From positions 3,586,498 to 3,650,497 of the forward strand of contig OZ223236.1 of the NCBI GenBank assembly GCA_965140445.1: a DNA stretch of 64,000 nt, given 5' to 3'. The notes under the pieces were generated by a model. The model was not told where the DNA came from. It ran no database searches and saw only the letters and a program-made list of their open reading frames with translations. This DNA is from Candidatus Ozemobacteraceae bacterium (GTDB taxonomy: Bacteria > Muiribacteriota > Ozemobacteria > Ozemobacterales > Ozemobacteraceae). Each line of letters starts with the position of its first letter. Within the stretch, counting starts at the first letter, position 1. The position numbers were made by a program, and so were the translations under genes. This document shows positions 26,598 to 63,707 of the stretch, piece by piece.

Positions 26598-27296
26598 ATG
26601 GAAACCAAGCTTTTTACATTTGCCCTTCTTTCCTACTTAATAGGGAGTATACCCACTGGGACAATAGTCTCAAAAATAAAAGGGCAAAATAGCCTTATTG
26701 AACCTGGAACTCGTTCCACAAAAATGCCAGGGGAGATATTTAAAATTCTTGGCATTCCAACTGGAATATTGGTTTCTTTATTAGATGCATTAAAGGGATT
26801 TCTGGTAGTTACCGTTCTTTTAAAGCATCTCTTTGGCGCAAATGCCGCCGACTCATGGTGGATCGTGAGTATGGGCGGCATGCTCGCAGTTATTGGGCAC
26901 TGTAACTCTGCGCTTCTTGGATTTAGAGGTGGCAGAGGACTTGCTCCAACATTTGGTGTAGCTTTTGGAATTCTCCCAATACCAGCAATACTTTCATGTA
27001 TTCTGGGAATGTCTCTGGCATTCTGGGGACTGTCAAGCAAACCAGGAGCTCTTAGTGCTGCAGGTGCCCTTCCATTGTTTTCAATTTTATGGGTATTGCT
27101 TATTAAACCAACCACTAATGTAAATTATCTTTATGTGGTCGCCTTTTTATCTTTATGGACAATGTGGGAACATCGTGATGAGTTAAAAAACTATATGGGA
27201 ATAAAAACCATCAATCCTGAAATTATTACCTCAGATGCCGATGCCGATGCCGATGCCGATGCCGATGCCGATGCCGAAATATTAGAGAAAAAATAG
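26598..27296 (+). CDS. plsY: Glycerol-3-phosphate acyltransferase PlsY with an unusual C-terminal (Asp-Ala)7 tail
   Basis: Characteristic PlsY N-terminus LSYLIGSIPTGTIVSK and a polytopic topology. The C-terminal DADADADADADADA tail is encoded by the (GATGCC)7 repeat. Confidence 0.75.
   Translation: METKLFTFALLSYLIGSIPTGTIVSKIKGQNSLIEPGTRSTKMPGEIFKILGIPTGILVSLLDALKGFLVVTVLLKHLFGANAADSWWIVSMGGMLAVIGHCNSALLGFRGGRGLAPTFGVAFGILPIPAILSCILGMSLAFWGLSSKPGALSAAGALPLFSILWVLLIKPTTNVNYLYVVAFLSLWTMWEHRDELKNYMGIKTINPEIITSDADADADADADADAEILEKK
27234..27275 (+). repeat. Perfect hexanucleotide microsatellite (GATGCC)x7, in frame at the 3' end of plsY
   Basis: Seven exact tandem copies seen directly in the sequence. 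Confidence 0.95.
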
Positions 27297-27948: not shown

Positions 27949-28401
27949 ATGAGTTTACCGGGAAAAATAATTGAAGTAAACAGCAACCTTGCTATAGTAG
28001 AAGTCAGTCCAAAACCAGAATGTACAGGGTGCCATGCATGTCAGGGTCTATTAGGTGGAGAAAAAAAGTCTTCACTAAAAAGAATTGAAGCCTTTATTGA
28101 TGATGTCGTTCCAGAGCCAGGAGACGAAGTGATTCTTGATACCAAACCAGGTGAAGGAAGCATCGCCGCACTTTTAGTCTTTGGTCTGCCAATGCTATTT
28201 TTCTTCGTGGGACTATTTCTAGGTCCTCAAGTTTCTCTTTATCTGGGCTTTTCTGCTTCAGATTCAACCAGATTAATAACGGGCTTTATTTTCATGGCGA
28301 TTTCATTTGCCATCCTGGCAGGGGTTTCTAAAACAAAATTTGCCAGAAGTATAAGCCTAAAGGTTACTAAAATAACCAAAAGTGCCAAAGAAAGTAGATA
28401 A
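27949..28401 (+). CDS. rseC: RseC/MucC-family (SoxR-reducing-system-associated) membrane protein
   Basis: N-terminal cysteine cluster CTGCHAC followed by two TM helices. Located immediately downstream of the rnf operon, as is common. Confidence 0.65.
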   Translation: MSLPGKIIEVNSNLAIVEVSPKPECTGCHACQGLLGGEKKSSLKRIEAFIDDVVPEPGDEVILDTKPGEGSIAALLVFGLPMLFFFVGLFLGPQVSLYLGFSASDSTRLITGFIFMAISFAILAGVSKTKFARSISLKVTKITKSAKESR

Positions 28402-28703
28402 AAAAAATCCCTGGATCAAAAAGCCAGGGAAAAAGTGAGAGGATCTTTTGAGAGGATACTTGAGTCATCTGGGGAGATGACATAAGATATTAAAAAGTGT
28501 TCTCCGAATCATAAAATAATTTCTTGATTAATCATGGGACAAACTTCAGTGATTTTTGCTGTGATTGTAGTTTATCTAAGGCTTTAACTATATTTTGAGT
28601 GTTTCTTTTAAAAAAATTTATAAGTTCGTTAGTATTTGCTTTATAACAGTATTTTCATACATTAACGATCCGGAAAACACATTTTTACTTTTTCAAAGAG
28701 CTA
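28402..28703 (-). ncRNA. Candidate sigma-54-dependent small RNA, paralog 1 (about 300 nt), bounded by a -24/-12 promoter and an intrinsic terminator
   Basis: Minus-strand promoter TTGGCATCGAAATTGCT (GG-N10-GC). Conserved 5' block, a variable core, a conserved 3' hairpin (gucauc-N6-gaugac) and the AUCCUCUCAAAAGAUCCUCUCAC motif. Terminator hairpin tccctgg/ccaggga followed by a U8 run. No ORF of 60 aa or more. Confidence 0.5.
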
Positions 28704-28714
28704 TTTATATTAGA

Positions 28715-28729
28715 GCAATTTCGATGCCA
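28715..28729 (-). promoter_or_regulatory. Sigma-54 (-24/-12) promoter of sRNA paralog 1
   Basis: Reverse complement reads TGGCATCGAAATTGC with a GG-N10-GC spacing. Confidence 0.55.
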
Positions 28730-28870
28730 ACTTTTCATTTTTATAAATTGATCTCCAAACCATTATAAAAAGTGATAAACTCGCAATTTTCGCCAATTTG
28801 AACTTATTATACGAATGTGCACTTTTTTTTATGGTGGATTTTAGCACACACATAAGCTTCTAATTTGACA

Positions 28871-29178
28871 AAAAAAATCCCCGGTCAAAAAGCCGGGGAC
28901 AAAGTGAGAGGATCTTTTGAGAGGATACTTGAGTCATCTGGGGAGATGACATAAGATATTAAAAAGTGCTTTCCGAACCATGTTATAAATTTTGGTGCGT
29001 TTGTTATTGTGAATAATTTGTAGCTTTTTCGTATATATTAGGTTGTTTTAGAGGATGTATTCGGTTATTTCGATTCAATAGTTATTCTGTGAATTTTGCT
29101 TTTTCGTTTATTTTGACCCAGCACTGTTAATACTGCAAACGATCCGGAAAACACATTTTTACTTTTTTCAAAGAGCTA
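28871..29178 (-). ncRNA. Candidate sigma-54-dependent small RNA, paralog 2 (about 300 nt)
   Basis: Minus-strand promoter TTGGCACGACAATTGCG, a near-perfect sigma-54 consensus. Shares the conserved 5' and 3' blocks of copy 1. Terminator hairpin tccccgg/ccgggga followed by a U-run. Confidence 0.5.
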
Positions 29179-29189
29179 CCCCTACATAC

Positions 29190-29204
29190 GCAATTGTCGT
29201 GCCA
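29190..29204 (-). promoter_or_regulatory. Sigma-54 (-24/-12) promoter of sRNA paralog 2
   Basis: Reverse complement reads TGGCACGACAATTGC, matching the consensus TGGCACG-N4-TTGC. Confidence 0.65.
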
Positions 29205-29363
29205 ACAAAATTCCTTTTCTGTTTTTGTGATGTTTTCTGCTTACAAGCCTTGTGTAGAGACGTTTCACCTGGAAACAAACAAAATAGTATGTGCTTTTTT
29301 TTACAATGTTGTATTTTCACACCCACACTTGGAAACACCTATAAATTTATAACTTACAAATCA

Positions 29364-29676
29364 AAAAAAAATCCCCGGTTTAAAAAAAGCCGGGGACAAA
29401 GTGAGAGGATCTTTTGAGAGGATTCGGGAGTCATCTCCTGAGAGATGACCAATTTATGAAAAGAGCTTTCCGGATCATGCTGTAATTTCTTCTTAACTTA
29501 TACTGTTACTTATTGTGAGGGGAGGATCGACCATACTATAGTTAGGAGAGGATGTTAAGCTATGAGCAGTAAGTCTATTGTAAGAGTATCAAATACTGTG
29601 AATAATAATGTGAACCAGTAACAACTTATACTGTAAACGACCCGGAAAACTACTTTTTACTATTTTCAAAGAGCTA
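29364..29676 (-). ncRNA. Candidate sigma-54-dependent small RNA, paralog 3 (about 310 nt)
   Basis: Minus-strand promoter CTGGCATAGGAATTGCA (GG-N10-GC). Shares the conserved 5' and 3' blocks. Terminator hairpin tccccgg/ccgggga with a longer loop, followed by a U9 run. Confidence 0.5.
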
Positions 29677-29687
29677 CTTAACTATAT

Positions 29688-29702
29688 GCAATTCCTATGC
29701 CA
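29688..29702 (-). promoter_or_regulatory. Sigma-54 (-24/-12) promoter of sRNA paralog 3
   Basis: Reverse complement reads TGGCATAGGAATTGC with a GG-N10-GC spacing. Confidence 0.55.
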
Positions 29703-29943
29703 GCTTTTTTTTATCATTTTTAGCTAATTTTAGGGCATTTCCTTTGTTAACTTTTTTCACCAGTGTTTTTTTTTCACACTCAAAAACAAGCTTCCACACC
29801 CCTATTTCAACACGACATGCATTTTTTGTCAACTACTTTAGGTTTTTTAAAAGTTCTACTTTGTTCTTTTTTTCACGTTCTCCGACGTGTGTGTTTTTTT
29901 TTCACCTTTATATTTTTTCCCCATTAGGCTATATTGCATTCAA

Positions 29944-62216: not shown

Positions 62217-63707
62217 CTACTTTTTAGAAGATCTTTTTGCACTATCAATTTGTATCTTTTTTAGTTCTTCCTTGGAAATAGGTACACAAAATCTATTGTA
62301 TTCTCTTAAAGAGCCACATTGATTCGCAAACTCCAGATCAATGGTTTCTTTTTCCCAATTATAGCTTCCCTCTGCCTTGCCGAAAGCCTTAATAAACTTT
62401 AGCCAATGTTCTCCAGCAGCACCGATTTCAGCTCCTTTTGAACTAGAAATTGCAGCTACGGAAAGAATGCCAAAAGCATGATACCAAGGACCTATTTTAT
62501 CTCCAGTATGATCACCAGCTGGCCTAAGGTTTCGCAATTTTTTAACAATATCGCTATGCGGACGAAGCTTTTTCCTTAGCAAAAAGGCTTCTTTCATTTT
62601 TCCCTGTTTATTCCGTGCAAACATAGGGGTTAAACCATCGCTCCTCCCATTTTTTGCTGTTTCTTTTAAAACAGCATGGGCAGTTAATACAGCCAGTGGA
62701 TAGTTTCCTTTACATATGTCCAATGACTTTTTCATTACCTGAAAAGGCAACAAACTATCATCAGGAGAGTTTAAAATTTCTTGCCGAAGGGCTGCTTCCG
62801 TTTTCTCGGTTAGAGCTGCATAAATATTGGTCTTTCGATTTTCTGAAGGGATTTCATCCATTGCCATAAGCCTGGCAAGATCTCCAGTATCATCTTTCAA
62901 AAAGCCTTTAACCAGACCATCGTCAATATGTTTTTGTGTTTCATTTGGAACAACAAGCCTATTGTGAACACCAGGATAAGCCTTAACTGTTTTAACTAAA
63001 TTTCCAACACATGCTTTTATCCATCTTTCCCAGATAATTGGCGAAACACGCTTGTCCCAAACTCCTCGAAAATCCCTAAATTCCTCAATATCCTCAAGGG
63101 TCTTCGGGATATCTTTCTTTGAAATTGCAGCGCCCTGTAATTTTTCAATGGCCAAAACCGCAATCTTAGAAAAAATTTCTTTATAAATTGGCCATTTTGC
63201 TTTTAGATCGGTTTTATTTTTAAAAATGATTCTAAAATGGTATGCGTATTTTCCAACAATCCTGCCGTATTCTATAGAATCAGAACTACTAGAATGTTGC
63301 CAAAGTTTTTTTATTTCGAAACCTTTATCATCCTTGATTACTTCTAATTTCAATCCTTCACTCTTGTCATCATTAAAAAAATCCCAGAACCTTTCAACGG
63401 CATATTCTTCTCTTGCCGTGTGATAAGTAGGAAGAAATAAATGTATTTGAATGTGATCCTTGGCTTTTCCGCCAAAGTAAACGACTTCTAAAAGAGTATG
63501 AGACCTATGGGTAGTCTGAAAATTAGGTTTAATAGCAGATTCAAAGCCTTCAAACTCATCGGGAATGTTTAGATCTGCTATATCAATGTCATGCCCGGGA
63601 ATTGTGCCTGATTTATGAAATTGAGACCCGGCATAAAGCAAACTGTTACACAAAATCAGCAGGGTCAGGAAAATCCAGATTTTCCCCTTAAATAAATGTA
63701 TATACAT
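62217..63707 (-). CDS. Hypothetical secreted protein
   Basis: Signal peptide, 496 aa; I recognise no family. Confidence 0.4.
   Translation of the reverse strand: MYIHLFKGKIWIFLTLLILCNSLLYAGSQFHKSGTIPGHDIDIADLNIPDEFEGFESAIKPNFQTTHRSHTLLEVVYFGGKAKDHIQIHLFLPTYHTAREEYAVERFWDFFNDDKSEGLKLEVIKDDKGFEIKKLWQHSSSSDSIEYGRIVGKYAYHFRIIFKNKTDLKAKWPIYKEIFSKIAVLAIEKLQGAAISKKDIPKTLEDIEEFRDFRGVWDKRVSPIIWERWIKACVGNLVKTVKAYPGVHNRLVVPNETQKHIDDGLVKGFLKDDTGDLARLMAMDEIPSENRKTNIYAALTEKTEAALRQEILNSPDDSLLPFQVMKKSLDICKGNYPLAVLTAHAVLKETAKNGRSDGLTPMFARNKQGKMKEAFLLRKKLRPHSDIVKKLRNLRPAGDHTGDKIGPWYHAFGILSVAAISSSKGAEIGAAGEHWLKFIKAFGKAEGSYNWEKETIDLEFANQCGSLREYNRFCVPISKEELKKIQIDSAKRSSKK

Follow-up and report, generated by a model that had tools for sequence, protein, structure and literature searches.

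A tandem CU-box motif in an apparently undescribed, phylum-wide family of putative sigma-54-driven sibling small RNAs of Riflebacteria

What is the function of a CU-rich motif that is kept unchanged in three successive units of a Candidatus Ozemobacteraceae genome? We addressed this question in a 64,000-nucleotide stretch of contig OZ223236.1 (hereafter the window), for which an earlier note had described three nearly unchanged tandem-box copies between a hairpin and a terminator and had proposed them as an anti-Shine-Dalgarno (anti-SD) seed of small RNAs (sRNAs). All three plus-strand copies of GTGAGAGGATCTTTTGAGAGGAT are exact, where shuffled sequences give an expectation of 0, and the description holds except for its coordinates, which should be 2 nt higher. 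In minus-strand sense the motif is AUCCUCUC-AAAAG-AUCCUCUC-AC, and each copy has an internal hairpin on one side and a Rho-independent terminator with a tail of eight to nine U on the other (Table 1). The analysis points to an apparently undescribed, phylum-wide family of predicted sigma-54-driven sibling sRNAs. We estimate a probability of about one half that the motif is the exposed core and base-pairing seed of these RNAs, which would act in trans on purine-rich, SD-overlapping sites.

The units, each of ~305 nt, align as minus-strand transcripts. The order of elements in a unit is activator-type palindromes, a sigma-54 −24/−12 box, the RNA 5′ end AGCUCUUUGAAAA, a long-range helix P1 around a variable G-poor interior, the hairpin P2, the sequence AUCCUCUCAAAAGAUCCUCUCACUUU and the terminator P3. 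In P1, GUGUUUUCCGGAUCG is complementary to GAUUCGGAGAACAC ~170 nt downstream, and the two strands form a long-range helix in minimum-free-energy folds. With its own promoter, its own terminator and no downstream cistron, each unit has the layout of an independent transcription unit. A cis-acting attenuator was considered and rejected, as no same-strand gene lies downstream of the sRNA units and the rseC-like neighbor is convergent. The 3′ module of copy 1 scores 104 bits with the R1 covariance model, and the interior of copy 3 holds the additional CU boxes CAUCCUCUCC and GAUCCUCCCCUCAC.

Promoters of the sigma-54 class combine GG at −24 and GC at −12 with exact spacing (TGGCAC-N5-TTGCW), and their enhancer sites lie ~70–150 bp upstream. 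The pattern TGGCAY-N5-TTGC has just three matches in the 64 kb of the window (0.35 expected), all on the minus strand and one per sRNA copy. In other genomes the same box stands 125–390 nt upstream of the motif in 52 of 59 occurrences, and in four of the seven exceptions a contig end truncates the locus. Upstream palindromes of the form GTGYR-N3-11-YRCAC (type TGTGYGAAAAnnCRCACA) are present in 27 of the 52 upstream regions, where the background frequency is 0.023 per 150 nt. They cluster 70–100 nt upstream of the −24 box with an enrichment of more than 20-fold, which argues for one shared enhancer-binding activator. The arrays in the window are imperfect versions that were recognized by eye. 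A signature search for GAFTGA-type activator proteins found none in either the window or the first 58 related loci. The conserved 5′ block begins ~11 nt after TTGC and reads AG(C/U)UC(U/A)UUGA(A/U)AA in all subfamilies, a feature that was outside the pattern of our first search.

Partition-function folding of 55 full-length members indicates that the boxes are mostly exposed. The unpaired probability is 0.83–0.95 for UCCUC in box 1, 0.70–0.90 for UCCUCUC in box 2 (0.82–0.90 without its first C) and 0.85–0.91 for the ACUUU that follows box 2, compared to a mean of 0.48 for the whole RNA. RNAalifold on a sequence-based alignment of 24 full-length B-type RNAs predicts P1 (16 bp), P2 and P3, with no pairing in the 5′ block or anywhere in the motif. 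The earlier proposal that the motif is single-stranded thus stands for the box cores, the spacer being the exception discussed below. MAFFT followed by RNAalifold on the 3′ module gave the terminator alone because the arms of the P2 hairpin are staggered, and P2 was resolved by covariance-model realignment. In the realigned register P2 and the terminator are 97.5% paired, compared to 30–62% in slid registers, with compensatory double changes at 10 of 13 pairs, and the observed values were reached in 0 of 500 shuffles. P1 is 98.7% paired, and likewise none of 500 shuffles reached its pairing or covariation score. The P1 strands are wholly different between subfamilies yet complementary, with −27.1 kcal/mol for own pairs vs −18.2 kcal/mol for cross-subfamily pairs, which places the sigma-54 start and the motif-bearing 3′ end in a single transcript. 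Among the three window copies the terminators also differ by compensatory changes (CCCUGG/CCAGGG vs CCCCGG/CCGGGG). Covariation is seen in all three helices, P1, P2 and the terminator stem, and the motif itself has no covarying partner.

The interiors of the long subfamilies have a constrained composition and a variable sequence, being A/C-rich with 9–16% G. In 6.2 kb of interior sequence there are 49 CCUC and 47 CUCC but a single GAGG and no GGAG, where ~19 of the latter two combined would be expected. The RNAs avoid sequence able to mask the boxes, as expected if the boxes must stay free. Open reading frames (ORFs) across the motif occur in all three frames or are absent; without a consistent frame the motif is not coding, and a coding or leader-peptide reading was rejected. 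A plus-strand reading with CsrA-type GGA motifs was also rejected, because the promoter, the terminator U tail and the covarying helices are all on the minus strand. That the motif is a conserved single-stranded functional RNA element is well supported.

The spacer between the boxes behaves differently. Its sequence UC.AAAGA tends to pair with the 5′ end UCUUUGA over 7 bp with one bulge. Such a helix might close the RNA and protect its 5′ end, with the boxes, ACUUU and U tail serving as a chaperone or terminator-efficiency module in place of a target-recognition seed, so that the motif would have mainly an intramolecular or stability role. The spacer is indeed predicted to be paired in most members (unpaired probability 0.13–0.5), and the helix is possible in 97.6% of cells, both partners being invariant. 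This invariance leaves covariation silent on the helix. The only variation, a U to A change in 4 of 24 aligned members that is also seen in D- and E-type RNAs, breaks a pair and is uncompensated, and the helix is not predicted by RNAalifold. Unrelated sigma-54 transcripts without the motif also have the 5′ block. Finally, both CCUC cores stay exposed even with the helix formed, and this reading leaves their invariance unexplained. We regard a mainly intramolecular or stability role as quite improbable.

To follow the motif beyond the window we scanned both strands of one genome per species for the exact 21-mer ATCCTCTCAAAAGATCCTCTC. The scan returned 58 loci, nearly all in Candidatus Riflebacteria/Rifleibacteriota and Ozemobacteraceae metagenome-assembled genomes (MAGs), often with two loci per genome. 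At least five subfamilies can be told apart by length and by their P1 and P2 sequences, with predicted RNAs of 215–310 nt across the family. Subfamily B, the type found in the window, lies between rnf-plsY-rseC and radical-SAM/zinc-ribbon/YgjP genes in ~25–33 loci, and the short subfamily A lies beside genes for Hsp33-like and FAD proteins in ~17 loci. The conserved neighborhood of each subfamily marks the members as sibling genes that are old and vertically inherited, as opposed to mobile repeats. The window organism is a distinct Riflebacteria lineage, its RnfB and RseC having at most 81% and 57% identity to any match. Its three tandem copies are unusual, as 77 of 79 related loci are single-copy and the other two hold two copies; the window holds three tandem paralogues at one orthologous locus of a Riflebacteria-wide family.

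An 8-mer direct repeat in tandemly repeated units could also act at the level of DNA, as a mobile repeat, recombination site or direct repeat bound by a protein, and have no RNA function. The flanking helices covary as RNA, promoter and terminator are conserved on one strand, each subfamily keeps its orthologous synteny with a single copy in 77 of the 79 related loci, and terminal repeats and transposase genes are absent. Covariation and synteny have already effectively refuted this reading.

The sRNA was also found in MAG contigs that carry other labels: L043 and L055 (Candidatus Methylomirabilis), L006 and L047 (Avigastranaerophilus), L031 and L038 (Erysipelotrichia) and L013 (Pseudomonadota). 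L031 and L055 also fall in Riflebacteria-type neighbor-gene clusters, and the other-phylum labels are probably due to mis-binning or misclassification.

Because the first search had used the motif itself, we scanned metagenomes with a motif-independent pattern, TGGCAC-N5-TTGC-N12-20-TCTTTGAWAA, which gave 111 hits. The exact 21-mer follows 180–290 nt downstream in 19 of these, and two more have one substitution at position 1, outside the CCUCUC cores. These 21 are complete family members; two further members are cut by contig ends. The 3′-module covariance model detected no version with a divergent motif in the first 100 of the 111 loci, which cover all but nine of the motif-less hits. The ACUUU that follows box 2 is at least 90% conserved, though it was outside the search pattern. 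Two degenerate extra paralogues, L029:2022-2098 (+) and L040:4128-4211 (+), keep box 2 with a decayed box 1: the former has box 2 alone (AAUCCUCUCAC) ahead of a terminator and the latter reads CAAGUAUUCUCUCAAAAAAUCCUCUCAC. The strongest constraint seems to act on box 2.

The same metagenome scan yielded 79 unique non-family hits (L059-L169), in which unrelated sigma-54 transcripts often begin with G(C/U)UCUUUGAWAA. In these hits G at −2 has a frequency of 42% vs 23% expected, T follows TTGC in 52%, and the spacer length peaks at 15–16 nt. The 5′ block may therefore be general to some sigma-54 transcripts and not specific to the Riflebacteria sRNA family. In the high-GC soil contigs L059, L079, L111, L135, L154, L156, L158 and L169, GCUCUUUGAAAA comes after the sigma-54 box at the same spacing, with a tRNA-like sequence behind it, GGCAGGUGCCCCGGUAGCUCAAxGGAUAGAGC...GGGUUCGACUCCC. 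These transcripts may represent a YrlA/Y-RNA-like RNA under sigma-54 control and have only the 5′ block in common with the Riflebacteria family. In a second soil group (L064, L096, L101, L102, L112, L113, L143 and L145) the transcripts start with GUAGCUUCUUUGAAAAG.

How would such RNAs act? In the mechanism that we propose, sigma-54 RNA polymerase would make the sRNAs under the control of one enhancer-binding activator, and the RNAs would accumulate when this activator fires. The two redundant CU boxes would then pair with purine-rich sites that contain GAGG, as might the additional CCUC and CUCC copies in the interiors of the long subfamilies. The sites would most likely be a limited and specific group of translation-initiation regions with GAGAGGAU/GGAGGAUC-type sequences, where pairing would occlude the ribosome-binding site (RBS). 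A chaperone bound at the module of ACUUU and U tail could possibly assist pairing. In E. coli sRNAs an Hfq-type module consists of a terminator, a U tail of at least seven residues and a U-rich stretch upstream; the U8–9 tails and the conserved ACUUU(G/U) ahead of the terminator stem correspond to it here. Sibling copies, of which there are three in the window, would raise the dose, like the siblings of the Qrr or alphaR8 families.

We searched for targets in ~0.6 Mb of Riflebacteria sequence, using 597 initiation regions with their RBS windows from the window and the related loci. In these RBS windows AAGGA (90), AGGAG (71) and GGAGG (55) are the SDs in use. The earlier note was right that AGGAG-type RBSs are ordinary in the window, and its reading of the CU boxes as complementary to such sequences is supported in part: the boxes overlap normal SDs only via GAGG(A), or GGAGG with a G-U pair, and the 5-mer GAGGA is present in 27 of the 597. 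Binding of the motif to the 3′ end of 16S rRNA, also suggested in that note, is implausible because the motif resembles the CU-rich tail instead of complementing it. The anti-SD proposal keeps its basis in an unpaired, conserved motif of a minus-strand non-coding RNA, but as a generic anti-SD function it is not supported by the counts.

Several observations weigh against a base-pairing seed. Just one of the 597 RBS windows contains the full complement GAGAGG, and a control window gives the same count. Within the window GAGAGGAT is confined to the sRNA genes, and it is not enriched in the related loci, with 11 occurrences vs 9–18 for control 8-mers. Over the 597 initiation regions the seed duplex energy is −10.0 kcal/mol, compared to −10.8 ± 0.7 kcal/mol for shuffled seeds. 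None of the neighboring gene families has conserved strong complementarity, and no mRNA target was identified in the sequence searched. Moreover, an invariant stretch of ~26 nt that includes the spacer, with a fixed 13-nt box period, is more extensive than a seed of SD size requires and would also suit a protein site. In this account expression, the transcript ends and the dependence on sigma-54 are predictions from sequence. A tblastn search of ~1.1 Mb with E. coli Hfq, CsrA and ProQ gave no chaperone or regulator match, a result that is uninformative, and no activator gene was found either. Since there is no enrichment in the ~0.6 Mb, the boxes, if they are a seed, would choose a small, specific target set.

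The strongest duplex match is a 629-aa protein that is present in just two species. At its SD, an ORF without Pfam domain at 62217–63707 (−) carries GGAGGAUCU, which matches AGAUCCUC over 8 nt, as is within chance. A possible partner in loci L146 and L168, a G-rich sigma-54-driven leader, was dropped because its context is unrelated.

The missing mRNA enrichment would also suit an RNA sponge or decoy, in which the partner of the boxes would be a purine-rich non-coding RNA, for example a further sRNA or a fragment of a tRNA or rRNA, in place of mRNAs. The extreme conservation of the motif would fit a single conserved RNA partner. The exact both-strand scan found no second locus fully complementary to the 21-mer, and all 58 hits are sRNA genes with a sense-strand terminator. 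We give an RNA decoy little credence.

The boxes could instead bind a protein. In this case the motif, together with the G-poor, unstructured CU/CA-rich interior, would titrate an RNA-binding regulator away from mRNAs, for example a protein that forms dimers or hexamers, a pyrimidine binder of the KH or S1 type, or Hfq; CrcZ/CrcY for Hfq/Crc and RsmY/Z for RsmA would be the models. The invariance of the entire ~26 nt, spacer and ACUUU included, agrees with protein binding, as do the constrained composition of the interior and the lack of target enrichment. The short A-type RNAs have a structured, G-containing interior, yet their boxes are identical, and the avoidance of GAGG and GGAG is equally compatible with base-pairing seeds. 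No candidate protein gene is linked to the sRNA loci, and we know of no bacterial regulator with CCUCUC specificity. A protein sponge is possible but doubtful. It is unlikely, and would be more far-reaching, that AUCCUCUC-N5-AUCCUCUC-ACUUU is the platform of a new CU-specific global RNA-binding regulator with the sRNAs as its antagonists. If true, this would be a Csr/Crc-like sequestration circuit with a new protein–RNA code, conserved phylum-wide in Riflebacteria. Sigma-54-type promoters and paralogous copies, as known for CrcZ/CrcY, also speak for a sponge (PMC4063720, PMC5113210).

Returning to the base-pairing reading, we compared the family with known sRNA systems. Rfam at gathering thresholds gives no match in the whole window. 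At E ≤ 10 the region 28300–29900 has sub-threshold matches to CU-motif sRNAs only, at 20–28 bits compared to thresholds of 41–50. Qrr1–5 of Vibrio depend on sigma-54 and an enhancer-binding protein and are near-identical siblings with an absolutely conserved single-stranded stretch and a Rho-independent terminator (literature cited in PMC12559287); their targets and Hfq dependence are proven. The Riflebacteria sRNAs resemble them in the sigma-54-type promoter, the sibling copies, the conserved single-stranded stretch and the terminator, all of which are seen here at the level of sequence. Qrr differs in conserved region, activator site, length and architecture, and no Qrr match was found at E ≤ 10 in 28300–29900. 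The Betaproteobacteria toxic sRNA (RF02278) and Burkholderia ncS025/anti-hemB share a CU-rich motif upstream of the terminator and nothing further. RF02278 scores 21.6 and 21.5 bits, below its gathering threshold of 50, and the RF02278, ncS025 and anti-hemB matches lie at 20–28 bits overall vs thresholds of 46–50.

The closest functional analogues are alphar14/NfeR1 and the AbcR-type sRNAs of alpha-rhizobia, in which identical copies of a CU motif are likewise unpaired while the surrounding stems diverge. The alphar14/NfeR1 RNAs have ultraconserved, redundant CU-rich anti-SD motifs in unpaired regions between divergent stems, and occlude ribosome-binding sites (PMC10746234). The NfeR1 motif CCUCCUCCC is a true anti-SD mimic in hairpin loops, whereas the Riflebacteria motif has AUCCUCUC twice in a linear linker between hairpin and terminator. 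NfeR1 is also from another phylum, has no sequence or Rfam similarity to the Riflebacteria family and is not sigma-54-driven. The alphaR8 siblings (MmgR, SisA–D) are multi-copy, sometimes adjacent, and have in common a 10-mer that bears an anti-SD signature (PMC12559287); NtrC is reported to activate mmgR, as cited in PMC10746234 (its reference 39). AlphaR8 (Rfam RF00519, suhB/mmgR) is among the best sub-threshold matches to the Riflebacteria 3′ module, but at 24.3 and 21.7 bits vs a gathering threshold of 41 the Riflebacteria RNA is not a member. In addition, alphaR8 RNAs are ~80 nt long, compared to 215–310 nt with a P1-closed interior domain in the Riflebacteria RNAs. CrcZ/CrcY of Pseudomonas are sigma-54 (CbrB)-dependent, paralogous, weakly structured RNAs of 300–400 nt with repeated unpaired motifs that sequester Hfq/Crc (PMC4063720, PMC5113210). 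Their motifs are A-rich (AANAANAA type) as opposed to the CU boxes here, there is no Rfam match to CrcZ, and a protein partner of the Riflebacteria sRNAs is hypothetical.

The features of the three units are collected in Table 1. The genes that flank them encode RnfB, a PlsY-like protein, a B12-binding radical-SAM protein with DUF4080, a zinc-ribbon protein and a YgjP-like protein, and the neighbor of copy 1 is a convergent gene of the RseC/MucC family, whose stop codon abuts the copy 1 terminator. The A-run and U-run flanks of that terminator (28400–28430) suggest that it could terminate in both directions. On the plus strand opposite the interior of copy 3 (29520–29625) the extra CU boxes create a strong RBS, GGAGAGGAU, at 29544–29553, which stands 8 nt upstream of a 19-codon ORF, MSSKSIVRVSNTVNNNVNQ (~29563–29622, +); this arrangement is probably fortuitous. 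The PlsY-like protein (26598–27296) ends in a low-complexity (DA)6 repeat, SDADADADADADAEILEKK (27200–27296).

Table 1 Features of the sRNA units and their surroundings in the window, with the basis of each assignment
Feature	Coordinates	Strand	Basis or remark
sRNA gene copy 1 (sigma-54 box to terminator end)	28400–28729	−	Predicted transcript ~28703 to 28400, ~304 nt; unit alignment, fold
sRNA gene copy 2	28870–29204	−	Predicted transcript ~29178 to 28870; sigma-54 box, alignment, fold, covariance model
sRNA gene copy 3	29363–29702	−	Predicted transcript ~29676 to 29363; sigma-54 box, alignment, fold, covariance model
Tandem CU-box motif, copy 1	28435–28457	−	Box 1 AUCCUCUC 28450–28457; spacer AAAAG 28445–28449; box 2 AUCCUCUC+AC 28435–28444
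Conserved ACUUU 3′ of copy 1 motif	extends to 28431	−	At least 90% conserved, outside search pattern
Tandem CU-box motif, copy 2	28904–28926	−	Exact match
Tandem CU-box motif, copy 3	29401–29423	−	Exact match
P1 long-range helix, 5′ strand, copy 1	28664–28688	−	Folds and alignment consensus
P1 long-range helix, 3′ strand, copy 1	28490–28512	−	Folds and alignment consensus
P2 hairpin GUCAUCU-CCCC-AGAUGAC, copy 1	28464–28481	−	Directly 5′ of motif; compensatory changes at 6/6 pairs across family
Internal hairpin, copy 2	28933–28950
Internal hairpin, copy 3	29430–29449
P3 Rho-independent terminator, copy 1	28400–28430	−	Stem 28408–28430; U8 tail 28400–28407
Putative sigma-54 −24/−12 box TGGCAT-N5-TTGC, copy 1	28715–28729	−	Pattern match
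Putative sigma-54 box TGGCAC-N5-TTGC, copy 2	29190–29204	−	Pattern match
Putative sigma-54 box TGGCAT-N5-TTGC, copy 3	29688–29702	−	Pattern match
Putative upstream activator site, copy 1	28813–28851	−	Degenerate GTGTG...CAC half-site array
Putative activator arrays, copies 2 and 3	~29275–29335, ~29770–29830	−	Equivalent to copy 1 array
Conserved RNA 5′ end AGCUCUUUGAAAA, copy 1	28690–28702	−	Copies 2 and 3 at ~29165–29177 and ~29663–29675
Convergent rseC-like gene	27949–28401	+	Stop codon abuts copy 1 terminator

To our knowledge no member of the Riflebacteria has been cultured. We found no described regulatory RNA of the phylum in Rfam 15 or the searchable literature, nor a publication there that links it to small RNAs; the sRNA family would be its first post-transcriptional regulator, and an easily recognized one. 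Its mechanism would not be surprising, since sigma-54 sibling sRNAs and redundant CU-rich seeds are already known, but the family itself appears to be new. Palindrome, promoter and 5′ block together define the signature of a putative sigma-54 regulon. The 21-mer is a practical marker, and could serve as one for the phylum, in that it flags contigs with Riflebacteria-type synteny in MAGs labeled as other phyla. Genomes that differ widely in GC content all keep the motif unchanged, so it must contact an equally conserved partner. Once known, this partner, whether a group of mRNAs or some protein, would uncover a core regulatory circuit of the phylum.

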